From: Candidatus Omnitrophota bacterium
GTDB taxonomy: Bacteria; Omnitrophota; Gorgyraeia; Gygaellales; JAQTUX01
Assembly: GCA_028707125.1 (NCBI GenBank)
Contig: JAQTUX010000001.1
Span: forward strand, 205,639-269,638
Direction: 5' to 3'
Length of the DNA: 64,000 bases
Each line of letters opens with the position of its first letter. Position 1 is the stretch's first letter. Of the stretch, positions 1 to 59,448 are shown in pieces. A program made the position numbers and the translations under genes. The notes under the pieces are model-generated. The model did not search any database. It had not been told where the DNA came from and saw only the letters and a list, made by a program, of their open reading frames with translations.

Positions 1-340
1 TCTTCCAGTATTTTATTGCGGAATATCTCCGTGGTCATGATCAGTACAAGCGCGTCCGGATTGATGGAAACGTCTCCGGTGAGTATTCCGATCTTATCGG
101 CGTATTGCCTTTGGAAGTCGCGGAACTTCTGGTTGGACAGCGCTTTGATGGGCGCCGTGTAGATCACGCCCTTGTCGCTTTGCAGGCACTCATTTATGAT
201 ATGTTCGGCAATAGCGGTTTTGCCCGCGCCTGTAGGGGCGGAGACGATCACGGAATAGCCCTGATTTATGTGGTCAATGGCCTGTTGCTGAAACGGGTCG
301 TAAAGCATTTGCAGATATTTTAGCATAGAGGTATAATTAA
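1..340 (-). CDS. Ski2/HelY-like DEAD/DEAH-box superfamily-2 helicase, N-terminal fragment running off the window
   Basis: Reverse-strand translation from the ATG at 338-340 gives MLKYLQMLYDPFQQQAIDHINQGYSVIVSAPTGAGKTAIAEH...YTAPIKALSNQKFRDF. It carries a Q-motif, Walker A (APTGAGKT) and a motif Ia (TAPIKALSNQ) typical of Ski2/Mtr4/HelY helicases. The ORF continues past position 1. The + strand ORF 105..323 is antisense to it. Confidence 0.7.
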
Positions 341-357
341 TAAAAGAGGAGTTATCC

Positions 358-705
358 ATGCGTTTAACAGCGGTAATAATATGCTTATTCTTTTTTGGGG
401 CGTTCATACCGGTGTTTTCGGCTTACGAGGAAGAAGAGGCGCCGTTGTCGGATGAAGATTTTTTTGAGCAGCAAATAGAAATGATGCGGCAGGAGGAGCT
501 GGAGGAGCAGGGCAGGTTTGAGGCGGAAGGCCGGCTCCCCGCGGAGGAAATCAGCGAAGACCTGCCTGTTGGAGACGGACCCGCCGGCGAAGAACCCGCG
601 AAAGAAGCCCCTGTCGTAGAAAAGCAGCAGGAAACCGATGATACACAGGGCGAGCAGCCCGAACATAAAAGCTGGTACTGGCAGCTTAAGAAAGCGACAC
701 AATGA
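358..705 (+). CDS. Small secreted acidic (Glu-rich) protein, function unknown
   Basis: An AAGAGGAG Shine-Dalgarno lies 7 nt upstream of the ATG. The N-terminus is hydrophobic and signal-peptide-like (MRLTAVIICLFFFGAFIPVFSA). The remainder is a strongly acidic low-complexity region. Confidence 0.35.
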   Translation: MRLTAVIICLFFFGAFIPVFSAYEEEEAPLSDEDFFEQQIEMMRQEELEEQGRFEAEGRLPAEEISEDLPVGDGPAGEEPAKEAPVVEKQQETDDTQGEQPEHKSWYWQLKKATQ

Positions 706-3349: not shown

Positions 3350-3450
3350 AACGGAATGATATTCTACCAGAAGCAGAACCTCATTGCAATGAAATTGGCG
3401 AAAAGAGGATATGGACAGAGCGGGAAAATTGGTTTATAATATCCCGCAGA

Positions 3451-4341
3451 ATGAGAAGGCGTATTCTGGTATGGCTATTAGCGTTTATCTGCGCCGCCCC
3501 TTTTGTAAACCAGGCGGATTGCTTTGCTGAATTCTCCTTCGTGGTGATGGGGGACAGCCGAAGCGACCACGGCAGGGAAGACGGCGTTAACGAAGATGTG
3601 CTGGTTAAGCTGGTGGATTTAATCAAGTCGGACAGGCCTGAGTTTATAGTGTTTGCGGGAGATCTGGTGTGCGATTCCAACGCCGATGATATAGAGGAGT
3701 TGAGGGGATATTTTTCGCGCTGGAAGGACATCATGGCCGCGGCAGGCGCCCCGATATACATAAGCGTGGGGAATGAAGATATAGATAAATACGGCAGCCA
3801 GGCGGAAGGGCTGATAAGGGAGACCTTTAACATGCCCGAGAACGGCCCGCAGAGCCTGCTTGAGCTGGCTTATTCTTTTGATCATCAGAATGCCCATTTC
3901 GTGGTCCTGGATACCGCGGTAGGCGGCCAGCAGGGCTTAGTAGGCGATGAGCAGCTAGAGTGGCTGAAGTTTGATCTGGACGCCAATAATTCAAGCATAG
4001 TATTTGTGTTCGGCCACCACCCGCTTTTTTCCCTGCTGCATAAGGGTAATTCTTTGGACAGGTATCCCGAGGCGCGCGGCAACCTATTGGCTTTATTCAA
4101 AGATAAAGGCGTGGATGTTTATTTCTGCGGGCACGAACATTATTTCCGCAGGGACTTGGAGGATGGCATTTTTCAGGTCGTATCAGGCGGCGCGGGCGCG
4201 CCTTTGCATGCCCCGGTAGAAGGGCCGGAGCCGTTTCACCACTATTGCCTGGTGACGGTAAAGGACGACGGCTCCTGTTATATCCGCGCGAAAGATATTG
4301 AGGGGAATATCAGGGATGAGTCAAGGATCTCCTTACACTGA
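3451..4341 (+). CDS. Calcineurin-like metallophosphoesterase, secreted
   Basis: Signal peptide followed by the metallophosphoesterase motif series GD(S)R...VFAGDLV...GNED...GHHP...GHEH. Confidence 0.7.
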   Translation: MRRRILVWLLAFICAAPFVNQADCFAEFSFVVMGDSRSDHGREDGVNEDVLVKLVDLIKSDRPEFIVFAGDLVCDSNADDIEELRGYFSRWKDIMAAAGAPIYISVGNEDIDKYGSQAEGLIRETFNMPENGPQSLLELAYSFDHQNAHFVVLDTAVGGQQGLVGDEQLEWLKFDLDANNSSIVFVFGHHPLFSLLHKGNSLDRYPEARGNLLALFKDKGVDVYFCGHEHYFRRDLEDGIFQVVSGGAGAPLHAPVEGPEPFHHYCLVTVKDDGSCYIRAKDIEGNIRDESRISLH

Positions 4342-4352
4342 AGGGGGTTGAT

Positions 4353-5027
4353 ATGGAGCTTATTGCCTCTTTATTTGAGCCGGGGATTTTCCTGCTGATC
4401 GCGGGAGGCCTGCTTGGGCTGTCGGGATTTGTCGTGTTTATGATCATACGCGAGAGGTCCATGCAGAGGATAGAGATAGAGTCCCAACAGGACCATCTTA
4501 AGGAATTGGAGATCGCCATTGAAGAGGAAACGCAGCGCAAGACCAAAGACATCTCGGCAAAACTTGAGTCCCTGGAGAATGAGGTCCGGGAAAAGGCGGC
4601 GTTTAAGCTCAAGGCCGAGGAGCTGCAGGCAGAGCTTGATAAGTCGCAAGGGGAGATGGCAAAACTCGAAGCGGCCCTTAAAGAGAAGGCGGCATCCCCG
4701 GATAAGGCAGCCGGCAAAACAGCCTTACAGGGAGAATTAGAAAAGGAAAGAGATACGCTTAAGAAAGAACTCGCCGGAGCCAGGGAAGAGGTGAGGCAGG
4801 CAAGGCAGGACCTTGCCAATGCCAAGGAGATGTACGAGGATCTGAAACTGCAGTTTGAAGACCTTAAAGAAAAAGCGCCGCAGGCGGAAGAAAAGGCGCC
4901 CGGCGAGGAAAAACCCCGCGTGGTAAGCCCGGAGACCTCTTCAAAGATCCTGGAAGCCCTCAGGGAACTTAAACAGTCGGAACAGAAGAAACCCCCGGAA
5001 GAGAAAAATACCGAAGAAAATAAATGA
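4353..5027 (+). CDS. Membrane-anchored coiled-coil protein, function unknown
   Basis: N-terminal transmembrane helix (IFLLIAGGLLGLSGFVVFMII). The rest is E/K/L-rich with heptad-like periodicity. The antisense S-rich ORF 4310..5131 is a low-complexity artefact. Confidence 0.45.
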   Translation: MELIASLFEPGIFLLIAGGLLGLSGFVVFMIIRERSMQRIEIESQQDHLKELEIAIEEETQRKTKDISAKLESLENEVREKAAFKLKAEELQAELDKSQGEMAKLEAALKEKAASPDKAAGKTALQGELEKERDTLKKELAGAREEVRQARQDLANAKEMYEDLKLQFEDLKEKAPQAEEKAPGEEKPRVVSPETSSKILEALRELKQSEQKKPPEEKNTEENK

Positions 5028-5170
5028 CTAATGACGAAATCCGAATGACGAATGAATGACAAATGACCAATGACTAAATGACCAAACAGAAATATATTTG
5101 GACATTGGACATTTAAGCATTGGACATTCATTCGACATTCGTCATTGGGTAATTCGACATTAAGATTTAG
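5028..5170. repeat. Palindromic intergenic repeat element, copy 1 (AATGAC/GTCATT and CCAAT/ATTGG word family)
   Basis: tgacgaatgaatgacaaatgaccaatgac...ttggacattggacatt...cattcgacattcgtcattgg. The left and right arms are approximately reverse-complementary. It fills the whole gap between two + strand genes. Confidence 0.6.
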
Positions 5171-5172
5171 AT

Positions 5173-6072
5173 ATGAGTATAATAGTATTAGGTACGGTCG
5201 CGCTGGATACGGTTAAGACCCCGCGGGGGCAGAGGAAAGAGATACTTGGCGGCTCCGCCGTTCATTTCGCGATGTCCGCGCGCCTGTTCACGAAGGTGAA
5301 TCTCGTGGCGATCGTGGGAGAGGACTTTCCCCAGAAGCACATCGAGTTTTTACGCGGCAAAGGCGTGATCCTCACTTCGCTGATCAAGGAAAAAGGCAGG
5401 ACCTTCCGCTGGGAGGGCGAATACAAGGGCGACCTGAACAGCGCCCTCACCAAGAGCACGGAGCTGGGAGTGTTGTCCGCTTTCAGGCCCAGCGTCGCGC
5501 GGCACCAGAGGCATATCAAATACATTTTTCTGGCGAACGTTGACCCTGATATACAGTCGCATATGCTTTCCAGTATGCGCGAGCCGAAATTCGTGGGTTT
5601 GGACAGTATGAATTTCTGGATAAATACAAAGAGAAGGTCATTGCTTAAATTGATAAAGAAGGTGAATATATTTGTGTTGAACGACTCGGAGGCGAGGAGT
5701 TTAACAGGAGAGCATAACCTTATTAAGGCCGCCGGGCGCCTGATATCTTCAGGGCCGCCTATGGTCATGATAAAGAAAGGCGAACACGGAGTCATCTTCA
5801 AGAGTAAGGATTTATTATTCTGCCTGCCGGCGTTTCCTACGGAGCAGGTGGTTGATCCTACCGGCGCGGGCGATACATTCGCCGGCGGATTTATGGGTTA
5901 TCTCGCCCGGCAAGGCAGCATCAATAACGCGTCTGTGCGCAGGGCAATATCCTACGCCACTGTGATGGCGTCTTTTAATGTGGAGGGTTTCGGCGTAGAG
6001 AGGACGCGGCGGCTGACGTTGACAGAGGTCAACGGCCGGCTTAAGGAATTCAGAGAGTTTATTAAATTCTAA
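5173..6072 (+). CDS. PfkB-family carbohydrate/nucleoside kinase
   Basis: Ribokinase-like fold signature DPTGAGDTFAGGF near the C-terminus. The N-terminal substrate-binding region is glycine-rich. Confidence 0.7.
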   Translation: MSIIVLGTVALDTVKTPRGQRKEILGGSAVHFAMSARLFTKVNLVAIVGEDFPQKHIEFLRGKGVILTSLIKEKGRTFRWEGEYKGDLNSALTKSTELGVLSAFRPSVARHQRHIKYIFLANVDPDIQSHMLSSMREPKFVGLDSMNFWINTKRRSLLKLIKKVNIFVLNDSEARSLTGEHNLIKAAGRLISSGPPMVMIKKGEHGVIFKSKDLLFCLPAFPTEQVVDPTGAGDTFAGGFMGYLARQGSINNASVRRAISYATVMASFNVEGFGVERTRRLTLTEVNGRLKEFREFIKF

Positions 6073-6091
6073 ACAAAAGGAGATAGAGAAA

Positions 6092-8188
6092 ATGTTTGAC
6101 GCGTTGATTTTGGCGCCGGTCGGTTCGATCCTGGCATTGGGATTCGCCTTTTATCTGGCGTTGTCCATACTTAAAAAAGACGAAGGCAATGAAAAGATGC
6201 GCTCAATAGCGCAGGAGGTAAGGGAAGGCGCGTTTGCCTACCTCAGGCAGCAGTATAAAGGCGTGGGGCTGTTCTTTGCCGTGGTATTCGTAGTCCTTTT
6301 AATAATGGCGATGAATAACTACCTGGTTATATTCGTGCCCTTTGCCTTTATTACAGGAGGGTTTTTCTCCGGCCTTGCCGGGCTTATCGGTATGAACATA
6401 GCCACCCGTTCCAGCGCCCGCACCGCGAGCGGAGCGATGAAGAGTTTGAACTCCGGGCTGCGCGTGGCATTTTCCGCGGGAGCGGTAATGGGCCTGACAG
6501 TCGTCGGCTTGGGCCTGCTTGATCTCAGTGTCTGGTATTATTTTCTTGATTGGTATTATTCCTCGCATCCTACTCCCTTAGGGCTGGATAAAATAGGAGC
6601 CATTACTTCCACGATGCTTTGTTTCGGCATGGGCGCCAGCAGCCAGGCGTTATTTGCCAGGGTGGGCGGAGGTATTTTTACCAAGGCCGCCGATGTAGGC
6701 GCCGACCTCGTAGGTAAAGTTGAGGCGGGCATCCCCGAAGACGACCCGCGCAATCCGGCGGTTATAGCCGACAATGTGGGAGACAATGTGGGAGACGTTG
6801 CCGGTATGGGCGCCGATCTGTATGAATCCTATGTCGGCTCTATCGTGGCCAGCTCCGTGCTGGGCGTGGCCGCGGGATACGGGGTCAAAGGCGTTACCGT
6901 GCCCATGGTTATGGCGGCGGTAGGCGTTGTCGCTTCCATATTCGGCACATTCTTTGTGAAAAGCGGCGAAGAGGCCAACCAGGGGGTGCTGCTTAAGGCG
7001 TTAAGAAAAGGCGTATTTGCCAGCGCCATTTTAGTGGCCATACTCTCATTTTTTATCGTCAAATTCTCTTTAGGCATGCAATACATCGGGGTTTATTACG
7101 CGGTGCTGGCGGGATTGATCGCCGGCATTATCATAGGGCTGTCCACGGAATTTTTTACCTCAAGCCGTTATTCTCCCACTCGCATGATCTCCAATGCCGC
7201 GCAAACAGGGCCGGCAACGGTTATCATTGAGGGCCTGGCGGTAGGTATGTTTTCTACAGCCGTCCCCGTGATAGTAGTGGGCGCGGCGGTACTGGCCAGT
7301 TACTTTTTAGCCGGCGGCGCGTCTAATTTCAATGCCGGCCTCTACGGCGTAGGTATTGCCGCGGTAGGCATGCTTTCCACTCTGGGCATCACGCTGGCAA
7401 CAGATGCCTACGGCCCGGTTGCAGATAATGCCGGCGGCAACGCCCAAATGGCAGGGCTTGAGCCCGAAGTAAGAAAAAGGACGGATGCCTTGGATTCCCT
7501 GGGAAATACAACCGCGGCAACAGGCAAGGGTTTCGCCATCGGCTCTGCCGCGTTAACGGCGCTGGCATTGATCGTGGCCTACAAAGAACAGATCGCTATG
7601 TACGGCAAGGAGATAACCTCTTCTTTGATGGATCCCGCTGTATTGGTGGGCGTATTCATAGGAGGTATGCTCCCTTTTGTTTTTTCCGCTATGCTGATGC
7701 GCGCCGTGGGCAGGGCCGCGGGCAAAATCGTTATAGAGGTCAGGAGGCAGTTCAAAGAGATCCCCGGGTTGATGGAAGGCACTGCCAAGCCGGACTGCGC
7801 TTCTTGCGTACGCATCACTACTTTAGCCGCCCAGAAAGAAATGATAATACCGTCGTTACTGGCGATACTTTCTCCCATTGTAACTGGTTTTCTTATCGGC
7901 GTTGAGGCGGAAGTGGGGTTGCTGGTGGGCGCGCTGGTATCCGGTTTCGTCTTAGCGGTAATGATGGCAAATTCAGGCGGCGCCTGGGACAACGCCAAGA
8001 AATATATAGAAGAAGGATTCCTGGGCGGTAAGGGAAGCCAGGCGCACAAGGCCGGCGTTGTCGGCGATACCGTGGGGGACCCGTTTAAGGATACCGCCGG
8101 GCCCGCCTTGAATATATTGATAAAGCTTATGTCCATGGTCTCCATAGTGTTCGCCGGCTTTATTGTGCGGCAGGCGCTGATAAAATAA
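6092..8188 (+). CDS. hppA: Membrane-bound K+-dependent-type ion-translocating pyrophosphatase
   Basis: Contains GGIFTKAADVGADLVGKVE and DNVGDNVGDVAG motifs and about 16 transmembrane helices. The GNTTAA motif has Ala rather than Lys at the K+-dependence position. Confidence 0.9.
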   Translation: MFDALILAPVGSILALGFAFYLALSILKKDEGNEKMRSIAQEVREGAFAYLRQQYKGVGLFFAVVFVVLLIMAMNNYLVIFVPFAFITGGFFSGLAGLIGMNIATRSSARTASGAMKSLNSGLRVAFSAGAVMGLTVVGLGLLDLSVWYYFLDWYYSSHPTPLGLDKIGAITSTMLCFGMGASSQALFARVGGGIFTKAADVGADLVGKVEAGIPEDDPRNPAVIADNVGDNVGDVAGMGADLYESYVGSIVASSVLGVAAGYGVKGVTVPMVMAAVGVVASIFGTFFVKSGEEANQGVLLKALRKGVFASAILVAILSFFIVKFSLGMQYIGVYYAVLAGLIAGIIIGLSTEFFTSSRYSPTRMISNAAQTGPATVIIEGLAVGMFSTAVPVIVVGAAVLASYFLAGGASNFNAGLYGVGIAAVGMLSTLGITLATDAYGPVADNAGGNAQMAGLEPEVRKRTDALDSLGNTTAATGKGFAIGSAALTALALIVAYKEQIAMYGKEITSSLMDPAVLVGVFIGGMLPFVFSAMLMRAVGRAAGKIVIEVRRQFKEIPGLMEGTAKPDCASCVRITTLAAQKEMIIPSLLAILSPIVTGFLIGVEAEVGLLVGALVSGFVLAVMMANSGGAWDNAKKYIEEGFLGGKGSQAHKAGVVGDTVGDPFKDTAGPALNILIKLMSMVSIVFAGFIVRQALIK

Positions 8189-8273
8189 AACAAAGACCGG
8201 GACTTATCTGCGCGCACCCCTGGGGCGCAACGGCTTCTTACGCTCCCGGGGTGTGTCCATCTTGAGGTAGGGC

Positions 8274-10235
8274 ATGGATAAAGACAGGATAGATTTTTCG
8301 CATAAAGGCGCGATCGCCCTTGTCGGCAATCCCAATGTCGGCAAGTCGGTTATTTTTAATCTTTTTACCGGCGAATACGTGACCGTGTCCAATTATCCGG
8401 GGACGACCGTGGAGGTGGCGCGGGGTATTTTCAGGTTTGACAGATCTTACTCCGTCCTTGACACCCCGGGCACAAACAGCCTTATTCCCTCATCGGAGGA
8501 CGAGAGGGTAACGCGCGATATACTGTACAAGGAGAACGTAAAGGCGGTTGTGCAGATAATTGACGCCAAGAACCTTAAGCGCTCGCTGTTTTTAACCCTG
8601 CAGCTGATCGAGTCCGGGCTGCCGCTTGTCCTCGCCTTAAATATGATGGATGAAGCGGAAGAAAGAAGGGTCAAGATAGATGCAAAGGGCCTTTCGCTGA
8701 TATTGGGCGTTGATGTCATACCCACGATTGCCATTGAAAAAACAGGCATAAATAACTTGATCCACGCTGTGCCGAAGGCCAGGGTTTCTTCACATGAAGT
8801 CGGATACCCCGAGTTTATAGAACAGGCAATAGAGAGGATATCGCGGCTGATTCCTCAAGGCGGGGTTTCAAAACGGCTTACCGGCATTATGCTTTTAAGC
8901 AGGGATGCCGCGTTCTTGCGTGATATCTTAGGCGGCGTAGATGCTGAAAATATCCGGCAGATCGAACAAGAGGCCGCGGCCCTGGAGAGCCGCTTATCAG
9001 GCAGGATGAGCCGGGTTATTGACCACAGCAAGTTTGCCCATATAGACGCGATTATCAGGAAGGTCGTTAAAGAGGAGATTTTGAAGTCAAAATTATTTCT
9101 GGAACGGCTGGGGAACTGGATGGTTTCGCCTTTGTGGGGCGGGATTTTTGCCTTGTTCATATTGTTTTTACTTTATAAGTTCGTAGGTGAATTCAGCGCG
9201 GGAACAGCGGTTGATTTTTTGGAAGAAAAGGCCTTCGGAGAATATTTTAACCCCTGGATAACGGCTGTATTGGGCAGGTTCATCCCATACGCGTTTGTAA
9301 GAGATATGTTCATAGGCGAATACGGCGTTATAACCATGGCGTTGACTTATTCTCTGGCGATAATCCTTCCCATTGTCTCCGCGTTTTTTCTTGCCTTCGG
9401 CATATTGGAGGACACAGGGTACCTGCCGCGGCTGTCTGTGGTTATGGATAAGGTGTTCAGGCGGCTTGGACTGCACGGAAAGGCGGTCCTGCCTATGGTG
9501 CTGGGGCTCGGTTGCGGCACAATGGCAGTGCTTACCACCAGGATCCTTGAGACAAAAAAGGAACGGCTTATCGCCACCGTGCTTCTGGCCCTGGCCATTC
9601 CCTGCTCAGCGCAGTTAGGCGTAATACTGGGTATGCTCGCGGCTGTTTCAAGGGGCGCGATGCTTATCTGGGTGGCAGTGATCGCGTTTATTCTTCTGGT
9701 GATCGGCTTCGTCATGGATAAGGCCATCCCGGGCAAGCGTTCGGATTTCATTATGGAACTGCCGCCTCTGCGCCTGCCCAAAATCAGCAATATTTTGACA
9801 AAATTGCTGGCTAGATTACAATGGTATCTTAAGGAGGCGGTCCCTCTGTTTATGATCGGGACATTGATGTTGTTTATATTTGATAAGCTGGGAGTGCTTG
9901 TCAGAATAGAGGGCTTTTTTTCTCCGGTTGTTCAGGGTTTCCTCGGGCTGCCTGCTAAGGCGACCGAGTCCTTTATAATAGGTTTTCTAAGGCGCGATTA
10001 CGGCGCTGCCGGGCTCTATGCCCTGCAGAAGGACGGCGCCCTGACCAACCTTCAGATTCTGGTAAGCATAATCGTGATCACATTGTTTGTGCCCTGCATC
10101 GCGCAGTTTTTCGTGGCAGTAAAAGAAAGGGGGCTGAAGGCGGGATTGGCCATATTCTTCTTCGTGATGCTTGTCGCCGTATTGACAGGAGGGGCGGTGA
10201 ATTTTATTATTAGTTATTTAGGGGTGAGGATATGA
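8274..10235 (+). CDS. feoB: Ferrous iron transporter B
   Basis: N-terminal G-domain GNPNVGKS...DTPG, followed by a polytopic membrane domain with FeoB gate motifs. Confidence 0.9.
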   Translation: MDKDRIDFSHKGAIALVGNPNVGKSVIFNLFTGEYVTVSNYPGTTVEVARGIFRFDRSYSVLDTPGTNSLIPSSEDERVTRDILYKENVKAVVQIIDAKNLKRSLFLTLQLIESGLPLVLALNMMDEAEERRVKIDAKGLSLILGVDVIPTIAIEKTGINNLIHAVPKARVSSHEVGYPEFIEQAIERISRLIPQGGVSKRLTGIMLLSRDAAFLRDILGGVDAENIRQIEQEAAALESRLSGRMSRVIDHSKFAHIDAIIRKVVKEEILKSKLFLERLGNWMVSPLWGGIFALFILFLLYKFVGEFSAGTAVDFLEEKAFGEYFNPWITAVLGRFIPYAFVRDMFIGEYGVITMALTYSLAIILPIVSAFFLAFGILEDTGYLPRLSVVMDKVFRRLGLHGKAVLPMVLGLGCGTMAVLTTRILETKKERLIATVLLALAIPCSAQLGVILGMLAAVSRGAMLIWVAVIAFILLVIGFVMDKAIPGKRSDFIMELPPLRLPKISNILTKLLARLQWYLKEAVPLFMIGTLMLFIFDKLGVLVRIEGFFSPVVQGFLGLPAKATESFIIGFLRRDYGAAGLYALQKDGALTNLQILVSIIVITLFVPCIAQFFVAVKERGLKAGLAIFFFVMLVAVLTGGAVNFIISYLGVRI

Positions 10236-16454: not shown

Positions 16455-16500
16455 ACCCTTGACATTTTACTGTGGCAAACTGATAATAAAATGTCAAGGG
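16455..16500. promoter_or_regulatory. Perfect 15-bp inverted repeat overlapping a TTGACA -35 box (candidate operator/promoter upstream of the nifU-like gene and Ca-ATPase)
   Basis: ACCCTTGACATTTTA-N17-TAAAATGTCAAGGGT. It is preceded by a 13-bp stem hairpin (GGACATAAGTTAT...ATAACTTATATGTCC) after metW. Confidence 0.4.
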
Positions 16501-16531
16501 TCTGCTCATTAAACAAACCGGAGGATGAGAT

Positions 16532-16759
16532 ATGTTAAAAGACAAGGTTGAGAAAAGCCTGGATAAAATAAGATCTATGCTTTATGCCGATGGGGGCAAT
16601 GTAGAGTTAGTGGCCGTAGATGAGAAAGAGGGGGTTGTAAAGGTGCGCCTTACAGGCGCCTGCGTCGGCTGCCCGATGAGCTCTATGACATTAAAGAACG
16701 GGATCGAAAGGGCGCTTAAAGAAGAGATCCCCGAGGTCAAGAGGGTAGAGGCGGTTTAA
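16532..16759 (+). CDS. NifU-like Fe-S cluster assembly domain protein
   Basis: 75-aa protein with the NifU C-terminal-domain signature TGACVGCPMSSMTL. AGGAG RBS. Confidence 0.75.
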   Translation: MLKDKVEKSLDKIRSMLYADGGNVELVAVDEKEGVVKVRLTGACVGCPMSSMTLKNGIERALKEEIPEVKRVEAV

Positions 16760-16770: not shown

Positions 16771-19476
16771 ATGAATCAGCCATTATGGCATAACATTGAC
16801 GCTGCCGAGGCGCTGGAGCGGCTCGGCTCCGATCCTGCAAAAGGGATCAGCGGGCAGGAAGCGCTCAGGCGCTTAGAGCAATACGGGCAGAATGTCCTGA
16901 AAGAAAAAAAAGGGCGTTGTGCCTTTTTTATTTTTTGCGGGCAGTTCAATGACTTTATAATATGGGTCCTTATCGCCGCCAGCATTATTTCCGGCATTTT
17001 GAAGGAATGGGTAGACGCGTTGGCGATAATCGTGATCGTGATGCTCAATGCCGTGCTGGGTTTTATACAGGAGTTCCGCGCTGAAAAGACCCTTAAGGCG
17101 CTAAAGAAGCTGGCTATCCCCGTATCAAAAGTGGTCCGCGATGGCCTTCTTGATATCCTGCCTTCCTCGCGGCTTGTCCCGGGCGACTTGATCGAGATCG
17201 AGGCGGGGGACAGCGTACCTGCCGACGCCAGGATAATATACAGTACCCCTAATTTTATGGCTCAGGAAGCGGCGTTGACCGGAGAGTCCACCCCCGTGGC
17301 AAAAACCTCTTATACATTAAAGGAAAAGGACACTGTTTTTGCCGACAGGGCGAACATAATTTATATGGGCACCTCCGCCGTATCTGGTAAGGCCAGGGCG
17401 GTAATCGTGGCTACGGGAATGAATACGGAGCTGGGCAGGATCGCCGAGATGGTGCAGGAGGCGAGCATATCGCAGACGCCCTTGCAGAGGAAACTTGAGA
17501 AGTTCGGGCAGTGGGTGGTGTATATGTGCCTGGCAGTGGTCACCCTTGTTTTTATATTAGGCATACTGCGGGGCGGCGAAATACTGGAGATGTTCCTTAC
17601 GGCGGTAAGCCTGGCGGTGGCCGCGATCCCCGAAGGCCTGCCGGCGGTTGTTACGATAAGCCTTGCCCTGGGTGTGCAGCGGATGGTAAGGCACCATGCC
17701 TTAATAAGGAAACTGCACGCGGTTGAGACATTGGGATGCACGACCGTTATATGTTCCGATAAGACAGGCACGCTTACGAAGAATGAAATGACTGTCCAGA
17801 GGGCCTGGGCAGGCGGCAGGACATATGATGTAACGGGGACAGGATATGCTTCGGAAGGCGGTTTTGAAATAGAGGGCAATAGGATTGATACAGGCAAGCA
17901 TCCCCTGTTGATGAAGGCCTTCACAATAAGTGTTCTGTGTAATTCGGCGCAGATAAGGGATGAGGCAGGCAAATACAGGATAGTGGGAGACCCTACTGAA
18001 GGCGCCTTGCTGGTCGCGGCTGCCAAGGTCGGGATCACGAAGGAGGATCTGGAGGAAACGAATACATTTATTGAAGAGATCCCCTTTGATTCAGAGCGCA
18101 AAATGATGACCGTTATACGCCAGGGCGATTCAGGCAAGGCCGCCTACGTCAAAGGCGCTCCCGAAGTAGTGTTAAATAGATGCAGCCATATTATAGAAGA
18201 AGGCGGCGGCGTAAGGGAGATGGCGCCGTCCGATACGGGGCAGATCATCCGGGCGAACGACTCCTTTGCTTCAAAGGCAATGCGCGTGCTCGCGGTTGCC
18301 TACAGGCCCGTAGGGGAAGAGATCAACAGGTATGATTCGGACGCGGTAGAGAACGGGCTTGTCTTTGCCGGGTTGATCGCGATGATCGACCCTCCCAGGG
18401 AAGAGGTTGTGGACGCGATCAACAAATGTTTCAGGGCGGGAATAAAAAGCATCATGGTCACCGGCGACCATAAGAATACGGCCGTGGCAGTCGCCAGGCA
18501 AATAGGCATTTTCGGCGAAGGCAGTATTGTCTTAGGCGGCGATGAACTTCAAGATAAAACCGATGAGCAGCTGGCTAAAGAGGTAGAAGGCATACCGGTA
18601 TACGCCCGCATATCCGCGGAGCATAAACTTAAGATCATCCGCGCCCTGAAGTCAAGGGGGCATATTGTGGCAATGACAGGCGACGGCGTGAATGACGCCC
18701 CCGCGCTGGCAGAAGCAGACATAGGCGTGGCAATGGGCGCTGGCACTGATGTCGCCAAGGAAGCGTCGGATATGGTCGTAACAGACAATAATTTCGCTTC
18801 CATTGTCGCGGCGGTGGAAGAGGGCCGCGGTATATATGAGAACATAAAGAAGTTTATCCACTATCTTCTCTCCTGCAACGTAGGAGAGGTGCTGGTGATG
18901 TTTTTCTCCAGTTTCTTCTGGCTGCCCCTGCCGCTTCTACCCATACACCTGCTCTGGGTAAACCTGATCACCGACGGGCTTCCCGCCCTCGCCTTAGGCA
19001 CCGACCCATACAGCCCGAAAATAATGCAGCTGCCGCCGCGGCATGCCAACGAAGCGATAGTAACGAGAAAAAGCGCTTATATTATGCTATGCCAGGGCGG
19101 GGCAATCGCCTTATGCACGATCCTGGCCTTTGTATTCGTCCTGTTTATTGAAAAGGGCGGCCTGCCGCGGGCGCGCACAGCCGCCTTTGTCGTGCTTTGC
19201 TGCTCGCAGTTGTTCCATTCTTTTAACTGCAGAAGCCAGTCGTTATCGCTGTTTAAGATCGGTATCCTTACCAATAAGAGGCTTGTCCTGGCGGCATTTG
19301 TCTCGTTGCTGCTGCAGGTGGCTGTAGTCCATCTGCCGTATTTTCAAGTGGTGTTTAAGACGCAGGACTTAAGCCCGCTTGATTGGCTTGTAGCCGCGGT
19401 ATTCTCCTCTTTTACCTTATGGGCCATGGAAATAGCCAAATCAAGAAAAATCATTGCAAGTTGGATGCAGCAGTGA
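16771..19476 (+). CDS. P-type ATPase, Ca2+-transporting (SERCA/PMCA-like, type IIA)
   Basis: DKTGTLT phosphorylation motif, TGDGVNDAPAL hinge, 10 predicted transmembrane helices, and the PEGLP motif in M4. Confidence 0.85.
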   Translation: MNQPLWHNIDAAEALERLGSDPAKGISGQEALRRLEQYGQNVLKEKKGRCAFFIFCGQFNDFIIWVLIAASIISGILKEWVDALAIIVIVMLNAVLGFIQEFRAEKTLKALKKLAIPVSKVVRDGLLDILPSSRLVPGDLIEIEAGDSVPADARIIYSTPNFMAQEAALTGESTPVAKTSYTLKEKDTVFADRANIIYMGTSAVSGKARAVIVATGMNTELGRIAEMVQEASISQTPLQRKLEKFGQWVVYMCLAVVTLVFILGILRGGEILEMFLTAVSLAVAAIPEGLPAVVTISLALGVQRMVRHHALIRKLHAVETLGCTTVICSDKTGTLTKNEMTVQRAWAGGRTYDVTGTGYASEGGFEIEGNRIDTGKHPLLMKAFTISVLCNSAQIRDEAGKYRIVGDPTEGALLVAAAKVGITKEDLEETNTFIEEIPFDSERKMMTVIRQGDSGKAAYVKGAPEVVLNRCSHIIEEGGGVREMAPSDTGQIIRANDSFASKAMRVLAVAYRPVGEEINRYDSDAVENGLVFAGLIAMIDPPREEVVDAINKCFRAGIKSIMVTGDHKNTAVAVARQIGIFGEGSIVLGGDELQDKTDEQLAKEVEGIPVYARISAEHKLKIIRALKSRGHIVAMTGDGVNDAPALAEADIGVAMGAGTDVAKEASDMVVTDNNFASIVAAVEEGRGIYENIKKFIHYLLSCNVGEVLVMFFSSFFWLPLPLLPIHLLWVNLITDGLPALALGTDPYSPKIMQLPPRHANEAIVTRKSAYIMLCQGGAIALCTILAFVFVLFIEKGGLPRARTAAFVVLCCSQLFHSFNCRSQSLSLFKIGILTNKRLVLAAFVSLLLQVAVVHLPYFQVVFKTQDLSPLDWLVAAVFSSFTLWAMEIAKSRKIIASWMQQ

Positions 19477-19517
19477 TAATTTACAATTGAAAGCGGCATA
19501 ATTGAAGGAGGTGCGTT

Positions 19518-19571
19518 ATGAGTTGCGGGAGCTGCGGGCCAAGGAAAAAGAAGAAGAAAAAGAAGAAGTAG
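19518..19571 (+). CDS. Candidate 17-codon small ORF MSCGSCGPRKKKKKKKK
   Basis: GGAGGTG lies 5 nt upstream of the ATG. A CxxC pair is followed by eight consecutive AAG/AAA lysine codons and TAG. A perfect 16-bp hairpin begins 16 nt downstream. Not verifiable from sequence alone. Confidence 0.2.
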   Translation: MSCGSCGPRKKKKKKKK

Positions 19572-19586
19572 CGGAGAAGGACGTTT

Positions 19587-19651
19587 CGTCATTGTGAGCC
19601 CCGCCCTTTTGGGTAGTATACAGAGCGCTAACTAACCAAAAGGGCGGGGCT
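19587..19651 (+). other. Perfect 16-bp stem hairpin (AGCCCCGCCCTTTTGG...CCAAAAGGGCGGGGCT) without a following T-tract
   Basis: Direct reading. The loop is 22 nt. The stem ends at 19651, 9 nt before the ATG of the next gene (19660). Confidence 0.6.
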
Positions 19652-19659
19652 TAATTCAC

Positions 19660-20451
19660 ATGGATAGATCAGAGAGGTTAACGGCGATACTCAAGAAAAT
19701 GGGCTCGGTTGTCCTCGCCTACTCAGGGGGTGTGGACAGCTCTTTTCTGCTTAAGGCGGCAAAAGACGCGCTGGGAGGCGATGTCCTGGCGGTTACAGCT
19801 GTATCTCCGACTTATTCCCATGGGGAATTACAGTCAGCCAAGAAGACAGCGCGTTCCTTAAAGGCCAGGCACCTGGTTATAAAGACGGAAGAATTTAATA
19901 ACCCGCGATTTACCGGTAATCCGAAAAACAGATGTTATTTCTGCAAAAAAGAGCTGTTTGGCCGGCTTAAGAGGATCGCCGCGAAGAAAGATTACAGGTT
20001 TGTGATCGACGCCTCCAACCTCGACGATGACAAAGACTACAGGCCCGGCAGCATCGCCGGGAAAGAAGAGGGCGTGCGTTCGCCCTTAAAGGAAGCCGGT
20101 TTTACGAAGGCGGATATCCGCCGTTATTCTAAAAAATTACGGCTTCCTACCTGGGACATGCCTTCTCTGGCCTGTCTTGCCTCGCGTTTTCCTTACGGCC
20201 GCAGGATAACCAAAGCCGCTTTACGGAGGGTTGAAAAGGCAGAGGGGCATATACGCAAACTGGGATTCGCGCAGGTAAGGGTGCGAGATTACGGCGGCCT
20301 GGCGAGGATCGAGGTGGATAAAAAACGCCTCCCTGAATTGTTGACCAAAAGGCAAACCATAGTAGACAAATTAAAGGGCCTGGGATATAATTATATAACA
20401 GTGGATTTAGAGGGCTATAGAACCGGCAGCATGAACGAGGTGAAAAAATGA
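19660..20451 (+). CDS. LarE-like PP-loop ATP pyrophosphatase (TIGR00268-type, possible sulfur transferase)
   Basis: SGGVDSS PP-loop at residues 22-28, conserved CYFCK, and about 260 aa, as in LarE-family proteins. Confidence 0.6.
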   Translation: MDRSERLTAILKKMGSVVLAYSGGVDSSFLLKAAKDALGGDVLAVTAVSPTYSHGELQSAKKTARSLKARHLVIKTEEFNNPRFTGNPKNRCYFCKKELFGRLKRIAAKKDYRFVIDASNLDDDKDYRPGSIAGKEEGVRSPLKEAGFTKADIRRYSKKLRLPTWDMPSLACLASRFPYGRRITKAALRRVEKAEGHIRKLGFAQVRVRDYGGLARIEVDKKRLPELLTKRQTIVDKLKGLGYNYITVDLEGYRTGSMNEVKK

Positions 20452-21608
20452 AGCGCATATACTTTGATTACGCGGCTACAGCGCCTACGGACGCGCGGGT
20501 AGTTGAGGCGATGAAGCCGTATTTCAGCGATAAATTCGGCAACCCTTCCAGCATACACTCCTTCGGGCAGGAAGCCAGAAAGGGCATGGAAGAGGCAAGG
20601 GAAACCCTGGCAAAATTCTTAGGGGCAAAACCGGAAGAAATAGTATTTACCTCAGGCGGCACAGAGTCAAACAATTATGCTTTGGAAGGGGCTGCCTTTG
20701 CCAATGAAGCAAAGGGCGATCACATAATAATCTCTAAGATAGAGCATCATGCCGTAGATGAGCCATGCAAGTTTCTGGAAAAGAGGGGCTTTAAGGTAAG
20801 CCGCGTAGGCGTGGACAAAGAAGGCATTGTGGATCCCGATGACGTAAACAAGGCGATAACGGATAAAACGATCCTTGTTTCCATTATGCACGCCAATAAT
20901 GAAATAGGCGTTATTCAGCCGGTTTCGGAAATTGGGAAGATCTGCCGCGATAAAGGCGTCTTGTTTCATACAGACGCGGTGCAGACCGTAGGGCATATAC
21001 CGGTAAACGTAAATGACCTGAACGCCGACCTTCTGAGCCTCTCGGCGCATAAGTTCTACGGGCCGAAGGGAGTCGGCGCCCTGTATATAAGAAAGGGCGC
21101 CAAGATCGCGCGTTTCCTGCACGGAGGAGACCAGGAGCAGGGCAGGCGGGCTTCAACCCAGAACACCCCCGGGATAGTGGGCCTGGGAGAGGCGGTCCGT
21201 CTCTGTTCGGAAAACATAAAAGAGGAGGCGGGTCTTCAGGGCCGTTTACGCGATAAAATCATAAAGGAGATCCCCCGCCTCATAAGCGACGCGCGCCTTA
21301 ACGGCCATCCTGTAAAGCGGCTGCCTAACAACGCGAATTTCTCGTTCAAATATATTGAGGGGGAAGGTATATTGCTTAATCTGGATATGCTGGGCATCGC
21401 CGCCTCAACCGGCTCTGCCTGCACCTCAAGTTCCCTTGAGCCCTCTCATGTGCTGCTTGCCATCGGCCTGCCTCACGATATAGCCCACGGGTCTTTGCGC
21501 GTAACCTTAGGCCGCTGGTCAAAAGAGGAAGAGGTTGACTATTTACTGGAGCATCTTCCTAAGATAGTGGATAAGCTGCGCAGGATGTCCCCCCTTTATG
21601 ATAAGTGA
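20448..21608 (+). CDS. nifS: Cysteine desulfurase (NifS/IscS class)
   Basis: PLP-lysine motif SAHKFYGPKGVGALYIRKG and the active-site Cys loop ASTGSACTS. Confidence 0.85.
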   Translation: MKRIYFDYAATAPTDARVVEAMKPYFSDKFGNPSSIHSFGQEARKGMEEARETLAKFLGAKPEEIVFTSGGTESNNYALEGAAFANEAKGDHIIISKIEHHAVDEPCKFLEKRGFKVSRVGVDKEGIVDPDDVNKAITDKTILVSIMHANNEIGVIQPVSEIGKICRDKGVLFHTDAVQTVGHIPVNVNDLNADLLSLSAHKFYGPKGVGALYIRKGAKIARFLHGGDQEQGRRASTQNTPGIVGLGEAVRLCSENIKEEAGLQGRLRDKIIKEIPRLISDARLNGHPVKRLPNNANFSFKYIEGEGILLNLDMLGIAASTGSACTSSSLEPSHVLLAIGLPHDIAHGSLRVTLGRWSKEEEVDYLLEHLPKIVDKLRRMSPLYDK

Positions 21609-22560
21609 TTTTGAGATACTTGAGTTTTTGCGCGGGTCGGATACCTACGTTTCAGGCGAAGACCTGAGCCGGCATTTAAAGATATCGCGCTCCGCGGTAT
21701 GGAAACACATACAGGAGTTAAGGCAGTCAGGTTATGAGATCTCAGCCGTGCCTCATCTGGGATACCGCCTGGACGCGCTCACGGATAAGTTGTTCCCTCA
21801 GGAGATAACCTCTTCTCTCAATACCAAATTCGTCGGCAGGAAGATCCACTATTACGAGAGCGTTTCTTCCACTATGGATATAGCCACGAAGTTAGCCGTG
21901 GAAGGGGAAGAGGAGGGCGCTATTGTTTGCGCGGAATCACAGTCAAGGGGAAGGGGCAGGATCGGCAGGCAGTGGTTTTCTCCGAAGGCAAAAGGCATAT
22001 ATATCTCGCTCATACTAAGGCCGAACCTCCCGCCGTCCGAGGCGGCAAAACTTACCATACTTTCCGCTGTTTCCTGTTGTAAGGCGATAAATGAGGAGAC
22101 GGGCGTGAGCGCGGGAATAAAATGGCCCAATGATCTGCTCGTGCGCGGCAGGAAAGCGGGCGGCATACTGACGGAACTGAACGCCGAAACAGACAGGGTG
22201 AGGTTTGTGGTCATCGGCATAGGCATAAACGTCAATAACGCCAGGTCCGGTATCCCTGACTATGCCACGTCATTGCGGCAGGAGAGAGGCGAAAGCGTCT
22301 GCAGGGTATCGTTGTTAAGGGCGATACTGCGCCGGATCGAGGCGGATTACATACATCTGTTGAAATACGGCGCCTCAAGCATAATCAATGAATGGAGGGG
22401 CCTGTCGCTTACCCTTCATTCGCGCGTAAAGGTAGTATGCTACAACAGAGAGGTTGTGGGAGAGGCGCAGGATATAGATTCAGACGGCGGCCTGCTTATC
22501 CGCAAGGACTCGGGGCTTGTTGAAAAGGTCTTTGCCGGAGACGTTGTTAAGGCCGGTTGA
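21598..22560 (+). CDS. birA: Bifunctional biotin-[acetyl-CoA-carboxylase] ligase / biotin operon repressor
   Basis: N-terminal HTH (LSRHLKISRSAVWKHIQEL) and the ligase motif GRGRIGRQWFSP. Confidence 0.85.
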   Translation: MISDFEILEFLRGSDTYVSGEDLSRHLKISRSAVWKHIQELRQSGYEISAVPHLGYRLDALTDKLFPQEITSSLNTKFVGRKIHYYESVSSTMDIATKLAVEGEEEGAIVCAESQSRGRGRIGRQWFSPKAKGIYISLILRPNLPPSEAAKLTILSAVSCCKAINEETGVSAGIKWPNDLLVRGRKAGGILTELNAETDRVRFVVIGIGINVNNARSGIPDYATSLRQERGESVCRVSLLRAILRRIEADYIHLLKYGASSIINEWRGLSLTLHSRVKVVCYNREVVGEAQDIDSDGGLLIRKDSGLVEKVFAGDVVKAG

Positions 22561-22592
22561 TTGTAAACTGGATAATATAATATAGTTGACAA
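22561..22592. promoter_or_regulatory. Candidate BirA operator (bioO-like palindrome) overlapping the -35 of the bioB promoter
   Basis: TTGTAAAC-N16-GTTGACAA. The half-sites resemble the TGTAAACC/GGTTTACA BirA box. The spacer length is atypical. It sits between birA and bioB. Confidence 0.35.
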
Positions 22593-22643
22593 TTACCGTA
22601 TCCGTTCTATCATAAAAAGGGACGGATTTTTTATGGGGGATCT

Positions 22644-28446: not shown

Positions 28447-28578
28447 AAGCGGATATTAGGTGATTTGGTGATCAGGGTCTGGGGATTAGGATATAAGGAG
28501 ATTGGGGACAAATACCTAATATCCCAATCTCCCAATATCCAGACCCCAATACCCTAATTACCCAATACCCGCATTAAG
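28447..28578. repeat. Palindromic intergenic repeat element, copy 2 (CCCAAT/ATTGGG-rich subfamily)
   Basis: ggtgatcagggtctggggattaggatataaggagattgggga...tcccaatctcccaatatccagaccccaatagcctaattacccaat. The arms are approximately reverse-complementary. Confidence 0.55.
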
Positions 28579-30564: not shown

Positions 30565-30573
30565 GCGCTGCCC

Positions 30574-30602
30574 TTGACAGAAGCCCATTTATAGGGTATA
30601 CT
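30574..30602 (+). promoter_or_regulatory. Sigma-70-like promoter preceding the riboswitch candidate
   Basis: TTGACA at 30574-30579, a 17-nt spacer, then TATACT at 30597-30602. Confidence 0.5.
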
Positions 30603-30635
30603 TATACTGACAATTAGGGTAGTGTAGGTTGAGGT

Positions 30636-30722
30636 TTTTCAGCCGATAAAGGCAAACCCGCAGGAATGCGGGGGCGCAAAGTTAGCGGCCCGGAACGGGC
30701 GGCGCGACTACCGAAGATGGAA
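30636..30722 (+). ncRNA. c-di-GMP-I (GEMM) riboswitch aptamer candidate
   Basis: The sequence aaaGGCAAACCcgcaGGAAtgcgGGGGCGCAAAGttagcggcccgGAAcgggcggcgcgacUACCGAAGAUGG matches the GEMM-I core segment by segment. The segments are GGCAAACC, a tetraloop hairpin, GGGRCGCAAAGC, a second tetraloop hairpin, and a closing ACCGAnGG. Confidence 0.6.
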
Positions 30723-30736
30723 AACTTTTTTATTTC

Positions 30737-30772
30737 CCGTATTCGGCATTATGGCTGGATACGGGATTTTTT
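30737..30772 (+). terminator. Intrinsic-terminator-like hairpin (putative riboswitch expression platform)
   Basis: CCCGTAT...ATACGGG 7-bp stem followed by ATTTTTTA. It lies 17 nt upstream of the ATG at 30789. Confidence 0.45.
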
Positions 30773-30788
30773 ATAGGAGGGCAAGAAA

Positions 30789-32927: not shown

Positions 32928-33059
32928 GACGATTACTTAAACCGAAACTTATGTGCAGGTACGCCAGGATAAGCGCGCACAGGGCGAGGAGGAAGATGTC
33001 TGATTTTCTGGGGGATAATTTCCCGGCGATACCTCATATTGGAAAGGGAGAGGCGCGCC

Positions 33060-33383
33060 ATGGAGAAGCGTGAATTCGTACGGCTGAATGTGGAGCTGGA
33101 AGTGGCTTACCGCGTAATCGGGTCAATGAGGGACCTTGCCGGCACGCGTACCGAGGATGCCTCTGAAGGCGGCATACGCGTTATGTTCCCGGAGAAGGTC
33201 CAGCCGGATACGCGCGTGGAGATCAGCATAAAGATCCCCGGAGAAGAGAAGCCGGTTTTCGCGGTCGGCAAAGTGGTATGGGTCAGGCCCGATATATTTG
33301 GCGGCGTGTATATGACCGGCATCCAGTTCGTCCACATAAAGCAGGCCGACAGGCAGCGCCTGTATAAATACGTCGTATTATAA
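33060..33383 (+). CDS. PilZ-domain protein (c-di-GMP receptor-like)
   Basis: An RRxxxR-like N-terminal motif (RRAMEKREFVR) and a D/NxSxGG-like motif (EDASEGGIRV) are spaced as in PilZ domains. The start is taken at the ATG at 33060 behind a GGGAGAGG RBS, because the track start 33039 is TTG. Confidence 0.6.
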   Translation: MEKREFVRLNVELEVAYRVIGSMRDLAGTRTEDASEGGIRVMFPEKVQPDTRVEISIKIPGEEKPVFAVGKVVWVRPDIFGGVYMTGIQFVHIKQADRQRLYKYVVL

Positions 33384-44970: not shown

Positions 44971-45100
44971 ATGACAAATGACGAGTAAATTTCCAATGAC
45001 CAATTACCAATGTCAAATAAATTCCCAATTACCCAATGTCCAATTGGGAATTGTTAATTGGTCATTTATTGGGATTTGGTCATTGGCGAATTGGGAATTG
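44971..45100. repeat. Palindromic intergenic repeat element, copy 3
   Basis: atgacaaatgacgag...ccaatgaccaattaccaatgtc...cccaattacccaatgtccaattgggaattg...ttggtcatttattgggatttggtcattgg. It is built from the same words and has internally reverse-complementary arms. Confidence 0.55.
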
Positions 45101-58707: not shown

Positions 58708-58850
58708 ATACAATAAATGACCAATGGCCAAGCTCCAATGACGAATGAAATCACAATGACCCAAATCCCAAACAGGAAATATAAATTGGGTATTGGGATT
58801 TGGACATTCATTCGTCATTGTGATTTGGTAATTGTTACATTATTCTGTAA
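58708..58850 (+). repeat. Palindromic intergenic repeat element, copy 4 (forward orientation)
   Basis: aatgaccaatggccaagctccaatgacgaatgaaatcacaatgacccaaatcccaa...ttgggtattgggatttggacattcattcgtcattgtgatttgg. It is about 90% identical to the reverse complement of copy 5. Confidence 0.65.
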
Positions 58851-58868
58851 TTGGATATTGATTCCAAG

Positions 58869-59399: not shown

Positions 59400-59448
59400 A
59401 TAGAGAATAGTGTTGCATTGATGATGATATTTTGATATAAAATGAGAT

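Follow-up and report, generated by a model that had tools for sequence, protein, structure and literature searches.

A CxxCG–polylysine micro-ORF of an Omnitrophota genome belongs to a family of very small genes and may encode a metal-binding micro-protein

A 17-codon open reading frame (ORF) lying between a P-type ATPase gene and a larE-like gene in the metagenome-assembled genome of a Candidatus Omnitrophota bacterium is almost certainly a real, conserved coding gene. It occupies positions 19518–19571 (+) of a 64,000-nucleotide stretch, here called the window, which comprises positions 205,639 to 269,638 of contig JAQTUX010000001.1 (GenBank assembly GCA_028707125.1). Its 17-residue product, MSCGSCGPRKKKKKKKK, carries a single CxxCG knuckle of the rubredoxin or zinc-ribbon type, followed by Pro-Arg and a tail of eight lysines (K8), and recurs with variations in metagenomes of archaea and bacteria. 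We put at about 60% the overall explanation that this is the gene of a trans-acting metal-binding micro-protein and that the GC-rich hairpin downstream of it is a separate element. A reading of the DNA made from its letters alone (the sequence-only reading) had proposed instead a leader-peptide device, sensing lysine or translation status or unmasking the larE start through a stalled ribosome; the unrelated contexts of the family, its absence from 80 larE loci and the exchange of the hairpin in a close relative speak against that proposal, and the alternative offered in the same reading, that of a real micro-protein with Cys residues and a lysine tail, gains strong support from the family and from conservation in that relative.

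The family emerged when metagenome contigs were scanned for TGYGGNNNNTGYGGNNNNNNN(AAR)5, a degenerate pattern that encodes C-G-x-C-G-x-x-K5, which returned at least 120 loci; the counts given here refer to the loci listed, namely 91 tiny ORFs among 120, with 83 distinct loci (84 with that of the window) and 88 loci for which gene contexts were tabulated. In all 91, which are 13–18 codons long, the first Cys codon comes one or two codons after the start and the lysine run ends directly in a stop codon, a framing expected by chance in only ~2 cases. The members follow the formula M-[S/G/T/A/P]-C-G-x-C-G-x(0-2)-K5-8-stop, 13–18 amino acids long: Met stands at −1 or −2 of the first Cys in 80 of 84, position 2 is S, G, T, A, P or C in about 79 of 84, and the K5–8 run, in which Arg is rare, varies least. 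In nearly every member, GGAGG or GAGGTG stands 5–9 nucleotides (nt) upstream of the start. Typical peptides are MSCGCCGPSKKKKKKK, MGCGKCGAKKKKKK, MPCGVCGPKKKKKK and MCGSCGCKKKKKKR, and the peptide of locus L110, MSCGSCGPKKKKKKKKR, is nearly that of the window. The window peptide itself shows all four marks of the family, with a start codon, zero or one small residue and CGxCG, a K5–8 run closed by a stop codon, a Shine–Dalgarno sequence (SD) at 4–9 nt and conservation at the amino-acid level in relatives. Codons vary across the family (TGC and TGT, all four GGN, AAA and AAG), and constraint therefore acts at the amino-acid level. Hosts include many DPANN-like archaea in addition to Omnitrophota-like bacteria. 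Among 2.9 million viral contigs the pattern found no match. Pfam and NCBIfam searches with the peptides, padded with extra Lys to 20 amino acids, produced no significant hit, and a full-text literature look-up of the peptide strings gave irrelevant matches only. The family is unannotated.

At the window locus, the SD GGAGGTG (19507–19513, +) precedes the ATG by 4 nt (CGTT), rather than the 5 nt counted in the sequence-only reading, which had correctly read the 16 sense codons after the ATG, the eight terminal Lys codons and the TAG. The ribosome-binding site (RBS), GGAGGTGCGTTATG, nearly matches GGAGGTGCGTCATG, the RBS of a bona fide gene at 32511. Counted over its two strands, the window has just 11 instances of GGAGG-N3-9-ATG, and the intergenic ones are true gene starts, the micro-ORF and one other short ORF. 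The sequence of the region is identical in Logan contig L081, an independent assembly, and the micro-ORF was left uncalled in both gene-call sets for the locus. An antisense ORF of 82 amino acids (19344–19592) that overlaps the 3′ end of the ATPase gene is of low complexity and starts in a segment that is replaced in the relative described next.

A search with the ATPase led to Logan contig L202, in which the ATPase is 97% identical (amino acids) and the metW–nifU–ATPase–larE order is the same. Its micro-ORF, MSCGSCGPRKKRKKKKK, is identical to that of the window at 50 of 54 nt, the differences being three synonymous changes and one Lys-to-Arg substitution (K12R), and the SD is identical. From ~8 nt after the stop codon, the 3′ sequence is replaced over 60–88 nt: the 55-nt hairpin of the window gives way in L202 to a 26-nt palindrome of unrelated sequence, GTAGGGGAGGTTTAAACCTCTCCTAC, ending just 5′ of the TTAATTCA(C/T)ATG of larE that both share. 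The fold energy is −22 kcal/mol for the L202 hairpin versus −43 kcal/mol for that of the window, and the larE start is unpaired in L202. Nucleotide identity is 96.6% in the ATPase gene and 90.5% in larE (16771–20451 versus L202 1190–4516), and the drop at the swapped hairpin suggests a recombination boundary. Judged from this comparison, the hairpin appears to be a separate, fast-changing RNA element of which the position, not the sequence, is kept. An ORF drifting beside a conserved hairpin, the pattern named in the sequence-only reading as pointing to a plain structural element, is the opposite of what L202 presents, where the ORF is kept and the hairpin sequence lost. Retention at greater distance is seen in a Micrarchaeota-like lineage, in which MSCGCCGPSK6-7 persists where the CCA-adding enzymes are 78–93% identical; these micro-ORFs keep an SD and an A/T-rich TATA-like upstream element, with a 3′ sequence that is not conserved and an upstream gene that is not always the same.

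These data bear directly on the simplest alternative, namely that the ORF arose by chance within a purine-rich (AAG)n spacer and that the hairpin after it is an ordinary terminator. Such a view can point to the mere 17 codons, to the silence of the gene finders and to the simple-repeat nature of (AAG)n, but it is effectively refuted by the about 90 listed ORFs in which SD, start codon and stop codon are all in register, by the synonymous or conservative nature of the L202 substitutions and by the rarity of GGAGG–ATG pairs in the window.

The codons of the tail are themselves non-random. In the window they read AAA AAG AAG AAG AAA AAG AAG AAG, with a longest A-run of 5. Across the family, the AAA fraction is 0.43 in the lysine runs versus 0.62 in the flanking genes (Wilcoxon p = 8e-11), and the longest A-run averages 6.1 versus 10.4 expected from local codon usage (p = 2e-12), with a mode of 5. 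This avoidance of AAA and of long A-runs implies selection for faithful translation through the tail to the stop codon. Ribosome sliding on consecutive AAA or AAG codons, treated as established in the sequence-only reading, is a property of iterated AAA, or homopolymeric A, and not of AAG (PMC4363877); the premise fits poorly here because the runs are AAG-enriched and depleted of long A-runs. Poly(A) sliding and dnaX-type −1 frameshifting do share with the locus a run of Lys codons with a slippery-like site and a downstream stem-loop. A dnaX-type site is an X XXY YYZ heptamer; the site here is only G AAA AAG in the window and a perfect A AAA AAG heptamer in L202; in contrast to those systems, AAG-rich runs are selected, and the hairpin lies more than 35 nt (at least 36 nt) 3′ of the heptamer rather than 5–9 nt. 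The −1 frame of the micro-ORF (19502–19597, +), MKEVRYELRELRAKEKEEEKEEVAEKDVSSL, has a TTG start and no SD and stops at the first base of the hairpin, and the same frame in L202 (3921–4019) ends in the opening bases of the unrelated hairpin found there. A frameshift fusion to the 19502–19597 frame was rejected as the main model, given the wrong spacing and the avoidance of A-runs.

The hairpin (19597–19651, +) was identified by inverted-repeat and folding analysis. Its 21-nt arms (19597–19617 and 19631–19651) are 95% complementary around a 13-nt loop and contain the perfect 16-bp stem recognized in the sequence-only reading, which had started it 16 nt after the micro-ORF stop codon; the spacer is in fact 25 nt long (19572–19596), and its similarity to L202 is lost after the first ~8 nt. 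The 90 nt that follow the stop codon fold at −41.7 kcal/mol (z = −9.4 versus shuffles). No T-tract follows the stem, as that reading had also said, and 8 nt (TAATTCAC), not 9, separate it from the larE ATG at 19660, a start backed by N-terminal conservation among homologues. The minimum-free-energy (MFE) and centroid folds agree on one dominant hairpin with the micro-ORF region unpaired, and neither contains an alternative pairing between micro-ORF and hairpin. The only SD-like purine run upstream of larE, AAGGGCGGGG, lies inside the 3′ arm.

It was this arrangement that invited the leader-peptide model, in which translation, stalling, sliding or termination on the K8 codons would control a hairpin that masks the larE RBS and so set the expression of larE, nifS and birA. 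The micro-ORF, hairpin and larE stand in tandem without space for a promoter between hairpin and ATG; the sole SD-like run is held in the 3′ arm, and the extended stem touches the start codon; L202 has a hairpin at the same place, a −1 frame that ends, as in the window, at the hairpin base, and the perfect A AAA AAG heptamer. A micro-ORF stop codon 25 nt before the stem, however, means that a terminating ribosome would not melt it, and no competing RNA structure is available. The L202 hairpin is unrelated and shorter and leaves the larE ATG unpaired, the lysine runs avoid poly(A), the conserved Cys motif is needless in a Lys-sensing leader and the downstream genes are unrelated to lysine. Lys codons bear no relation to larE, nifS or birA; the Cys codons, only two in number, could relate to the cysteine desulfurase. 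Conservation of the peptide upstream of larE homologues, a check proposed with the model, came out negative: no CxxC/poly-K mini-ORF occurs within 4 kb of 80 larE loci (0 of 80), about 30 of them from Omnitrophota, and in about 30 other Omnitrophota larE directly follows nifU or a 4Fe-4S ferredoxin gene across a short unstructured spacer. About a third of the listed family loci, moreover, have a convergent gene downstream or stand alone. Attenuators such as ermC/cat and trp/his and arrest peptides such as TnaC and SecM likewise place an SD-led short ORF before a hairpin and a gene with its RBS in the hairpin, but they differ from the window in that here there are no alternative pairings, the ORF lies outside the structure and the peptide is conserved in unrelated contexts; mutually exclusive structures and co-conservation of the leader with the regulated gene (0 of 80 larE loci) are both missing. 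We regard a leader device as very unlikely.

What the hairpin does instead is probably to stabilize an RNA 3′ end, to provide a processing site or to act as a weak terminator. Its GC-rich 21-bp stem is that of an intrinsic terminator, the U-tract is lacking (the tail is TAATTCAC) and it is absent from the terminator scan; a canonical U-tract terminator is used elsewhere in the window, after a c-di-GMP riboswitch. Long hairpins without a U-tract also stand at 8189–8273 and 28463–28566, at same-strand junctions and ending 10–20 nt before the next ATG, which suggests a genome-wide habit of structured inter-cistronic punctuation. We read 19597–19651 as a swappable inter-cistronic element because similar hairpins occupy these other junctions, and it possibly damps larE translation, since its 3′ arm holds the sole SD-like run. 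Within the window there is no second copy of the hairpin, and Rfam searched on 18500–20500 at E ≤ 10 gave only sub-threshold matches to it that resemble microRNA precursors. A TTGTGA-16-TAGTAT sequence inside the hairpin is a weak promoter match (8 of 12) below the scan threshold, and a promoter would not fit between hairpin and larE. The possibility that the hairpin is a copy of the AATGAC/CCAAT palindromic repeats of this genome was also considered and set aside, the two being unrelated.

The gene contexts of the family indicate where the peptide may act. Tested among genes within 5 kb of listed micro-ORFs, superoxide reductase (SOR)/desulfoferrodoxin genes are immediate neighbours of the micro-ORF in five of five cases, rubrerythrin genes in four of five and IscU genes in three of three, whereas a control set of 150 genes more than 1.5 kb from micro-ORFs contains at most one of each. 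In L192 (minus-strand micro-ORF; oriented coordinates 263–7654) and L093, the order is a gene for an FNR-like NAD-binding reductase, a flavodiiron protein gene, the SOR gene and the micro-ORF, beyond which come a rubrerythrin-like gene, glutaredoxin, a thioredoxin-reductase-like gene, Rrf2 and NifU, the latter 65–68% identical to the window NifU. In L176 the micro-ORF lies between rubrerythrin and desulfoferrodoxin genes. In L110 it overlaps the upstream gene end by 4 nt and is followed by Rrf2 and NifU genes, a hairpin and a fresh promoter for the Rrf2 gene intervening. In L138 (9233–10771; also L131 and L139), an archaeal IscU gene split by a LAGLIDADG intein, with IscS upstream, is followed 1–2 nt later by an MCGTCGC-K7/8 micro-ORF. 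Other neighbours are diverse and include the archaeal CCA-adding enzyme, aEF-1beta, type III RuBisCO and AMP phosphorylase. The context in the window itself (nifU, a metal ATPase, larE-like and nifS) is compatible with a metal, sulfur or redox role.

The same tabulation allows a purely cis-acting alternative to be weighed, in which a terminal mini-ORF, through arrest of the nascent chain or slow translation, would shield or modulate the upstream mRNA, or stop Rho, without any role for the free peptide. A same-strand gene ends at most 200 nt upstream of the micro-ORF at 52 of 88 listed loci, several of these gaps or overlaps being 0–4 nt; the whole peptide would still be in the exit tunnel at termination, and cationic nascent chains slow elongation (PMC9207662). 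On the other hand, at least six of the 88 listed loci have both neighbours on the opposite strand, the archaeal members have their own TATA-like element and SD while the upstream gene varies, an invariant CGxCG preceded by a small residue 2 is without precedent as an arrest motif, and tight adjacency to SOR, rubrerythrin and IscU genes suggests a shared pathway. Downstream, a same-strand gene follows at 40 of the 88 listed loci and a convergent gene lies within 200 nt at 28. We consider this cis-acting role unlikely, if slightly less so than a leader device.

We favour the reading of a micro-protein that acts in trans and not as a cis leader of larE. The micro-ORF would be translated from its own strong SD, probably on the nifU–ATPase transcript. 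The single CxxCG knuckle would represent half of a rubredoxin or zinc-ribbon Cys4 site, and two peptides would clamp one metal ion (Fe, or Zn/Ni), because each supplies half of such a site. The poly-Lys tail could keep the peptide soluble, or dock it electrostatically to acidic partners, nucleic acid or membrane. Most likely, the peptide would take part in redox or metal handling in Fe-S assembly and oxygen defence, beside SOR, flavodiiron protein, rubrerythrin and IscU/NifU. A chemical precedent is offered by METP and METP3, synthetic 11-residue peptides derived from rubredoxin: the CxxC peptide METP binds iron, and its dimer around a metal is a Cys4 site with rubredoxin-like spectra (PMC8434281); its dimerisation makes a 2:1 peptide–metal centre chemically plausible. 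A short CxxC peptide dimer around one tetrahedral metal ion is precisely the mechanism proposed here for the micro-protein, with the difference that METP is synthetic, forms a β-hairpin and has no poly-Lys tail. We know of no described natural counterpart of METP.

Rubredoxin offers the closest natural comparison. It is about 50 amino acids long with two CxxCG knuckles, and desulforedoxin, at 36 amino acids and homodimeric, is an example of a very small Fe(Cys)4 protein. The rubredoxin gene classically sits beside SOR and flavodiiron protein genes in operons of the rbo–rub–roo (sor–rub–roo) type. The family shares with both proteins the CxxCG knuckle with Gly after the second Cys and the SOR, flavodiiron and rubrerythrin gene neighbours, and in some oxygen-defence clusters (L192, L093 and L176) the micro-ORF occupies the place that rubredoxin has in such operons; a Clostridium rubredoxin query found no canonical rubredoxin in these redox loci. 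Rubredoxin is an electron carrier to these antioxidant enzymes (PMC13333549), and from gene adjacency we infer that the peptide may work similarly, binding Fe and passing electrons to SOR, flavodiiron protein and rubrerythrin. The peptide differs in having one knuckle in 13–18 residues and a poly-Lys tail, and it would have no fold unless oligomerised on metal, because one knuckle in so few residues is all that it has. It is not a member of the rubredoxin family (PF00301), with no Pfam match and no BLAST similarity. A specific version of the micro-protein reading, possible but not probable, is that of a half-rubredoxin: two chains on one iron, or a small Fe-S cluster in variants with three Cys, might donate electrons or carry metal to SOR, flavodiiron protein, rubrerythrin and IscU/NifU in DPANN archaea and Omnitrophota, whose genomes are reduced, and the tail would dock to acidic partners.

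Two further classes come near. The haloarchaeal C(P)XCG zinc-finger micro-proteins (for example, HVO_0758 and Brz) bind zinc (PMC10716476, PMC6562870, PMC2253796). They are archaeal micro-proteins defined by the same kind of Cys motif, but theirs are one-domain zinc fingers of 40–70 amino acids with two or four motifs, and the present peptide, about 15 amino acids plus K5–8, has one motif where that class has at least two. HypB carries an N-terminal M-C-x-x-C-G-C nickel site of high affinity, and a larE-like gene adjoins the micro-ORF in the window; the MCGSCGC-K6 subtype of the family gives a weak match to NCBIfam HypB_prefix_1 (NF053667; E = 0.056, 14.8 bits, below the 30-bit cut-off), and the window peptide (MSCGSCG, padded to 20 amino acids) gives no match to that model. 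HypB itself, unlike the peptide, is a GTPase, and the micro-ORF has neither hyp nor larB/larC genes at its side. None of the nearest described classes thus admits the peptide, which has a single knuckle and no fold. A duplicated nifU 3′ end was also considered as its origin and rejected, since NifU has TGACVGCPMS and the likeness is limited to Cys and Gly.

The tail, rather than the knuckle, might hold the key. A trans-acting polycationic peptide could bind nucleic acid or ribosomes, target membranes, act as an antimicrobial or mediate interaction with a host, its Cys residues serving disulfide or thiol chemistry. K5–8 is indeed the most invariant feature of the family, most listed loci are without a metal or redox neighbour, and the family occurs in DPANN-like archaea and Omnitrophota, for which episymbiotic lifestyles are known. 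This view is nonetheless at odds with the invariant CGxCG, a classical metal knuckle, and with the neighbour enrichment, which favours Fe/S and oxygen defence; the peptide shows no signal sequence and has no export partner nearby, viral matches number zero and no toxin–antitoxin-like or transporter partner is seen. We rate it as rather unlikely, though as the most probable of the rivals to a metal-binding micro-protein.

Several observations weigh against the metal-binding micro-protein reading. Both translation of the peptide and its binding of metal are predictions from sequence and gene context. The family scan is dominated by a few sediment projects, and the CG-x-CG and K5 positions are fixed by the search pattern itself. 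About 70 of 84 listed loci have no redox or Fe-S neighbour, and the enrichment for SOR, rubrerythrin and IscU is only suggestive because the associated loci collapse to about six lineages. A third Cys (CGCCG or CGxCGC) is present in 56 of 84 listed members, and the window peptide has only two; coordination chemistry may therefore not be uniform. Only four substitutions are available at the 97% relative for judging selection. In L203, the ATPase of which is 72% identical, an ORF at 8706–8756 (MCGGCPGDNIKYLSHF), 2 nt after the ATPase stop codon, has neither SD nor Lys tail and is perhaps a micro-ORF homologue that has decayed or diverged; where the ATPase is 63% identical, the neighbours differ and no micro-ORF is present. 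From a K-less ORF at 72% and none at 63%, it follows that the micro-ORF is dispensable or mobile within Omnitrophota. Finally, closure of the −1 frame at the hairpin base in both the window and L202 is the one hint, perhaps due to chance, of some possible cis coupling.

The genes around the micro-ORF, assigned by Pfam and on the forward strand from the NifU-like gene to BirA, run metX, metW, NifU-like, P-type ATPase, micro-ORF, LarE-like, NifS, BirA, bioB, bioF and further genes. The NifU-like (Nfu) gene (16532–16759) is preceded by a strong promoter-like TTGACA-17-GATAAT within a perfect 15-nt inverted repeat (16455–16501, +; promoter and repeat scans), the arms of which (ACCCTTGACATTTTA and TAAAATGTCAAGGGT) enclose the −35 and −10 of the nifU promoter and are identical in L202, with a different loop. 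This is the likely start of the nifU–ATPase–(micro-ORF) transcript, and the repeat resembles an operator, possibly for an Rrf2/IscR-type regulator. The ATPase gene (16771–19476), named as a PMR1-type P-type Ca2+/Mn2+ pump from Pfam and the source names of homologues, is typical of Omnitrophota. Its end lies 41 nt from the micro-ORF, which is therefore equally possible as the tail of a nifU–ATPase unit, and a check for signatures of horizontal transfer found no GC or skew anomaly around the two. The larE-like gene (19660–20451) encodes a PP-loop sulfur transferase of 263 amino acids; the name LarE is the NCBI label of an identical protein (P0001) from a Candidatus Omnitrophica metagenome-assembled genome, the closest other LarE being 67% identical among 5.8 billion proteins searched. 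It is followed by nifS (class-V aminotransferase; 20448–21608) and birA (21598–22560). At 22565–22613, a TGTAAAC-N16-GTTGACA inverted repeat overlaps a TTGACA-16-TATCAT promoter just 5′ of bioB; it looks like a BirA operator, with the bio genes forming their own regulated unit 3′ of birA. The sequence-only reading had placed the micro-ORF at the head of a larE–nifS–birA–bio operon, which is an interpretation; with its own promoter for bioB, the series comprises at least two transcription units.

Elsewhere in the window, the only real Rfam match is a c-di-GMP-I riboswitch (GGC variant) at 30565–30788, with its aptamer at 30642–30716 (+), scoring 60.2 bits against a gathering score of 59; the aptamer sits between a TTGACA...TATACT promoter-like site and a U-tract terminator, 5′ of a 560-amino-acid gene at 30789. 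Palindromic intergenic repeats rich in AATGAC/CCAAT occur at 5019–5162, 44970–45100, 58712–58844 and 60956–61084, and two of them (58716–58835 and 60963–61082, 93% complementary) flank the genes at 58851–60948 like the inverted repeats of a mobile or repetitive-extragenic-palindrome-like element. A second SD-led short ORF (32996–33073, +; GGAGGAAGATG, 25 codons) stands in a structured intergenic region upstream of the gene at 33039.

ORFs of 13–18 codons are invisible to standard gene callers, and the family described here would add a new, very small class of functional micro-proteins in both archaea and bacteria. It also carries a warning for annotation, in that an SD-led mini-ORF followed by a hairpin is not always an attenuator. 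If a Cys4 centre does form by dimerisation, these peptides would be nature's equivalent of the minimal metallopeptides made by designers, which are also invoked in scenarios for the origin of proteins; were the half-rubredoxin version true, it would be the smallest known genetically encoded redox centre. Such a peptide would then be a possible electron carrier for oxygen defence and Fe-S assembly in uncultured, ultra-small organisms.

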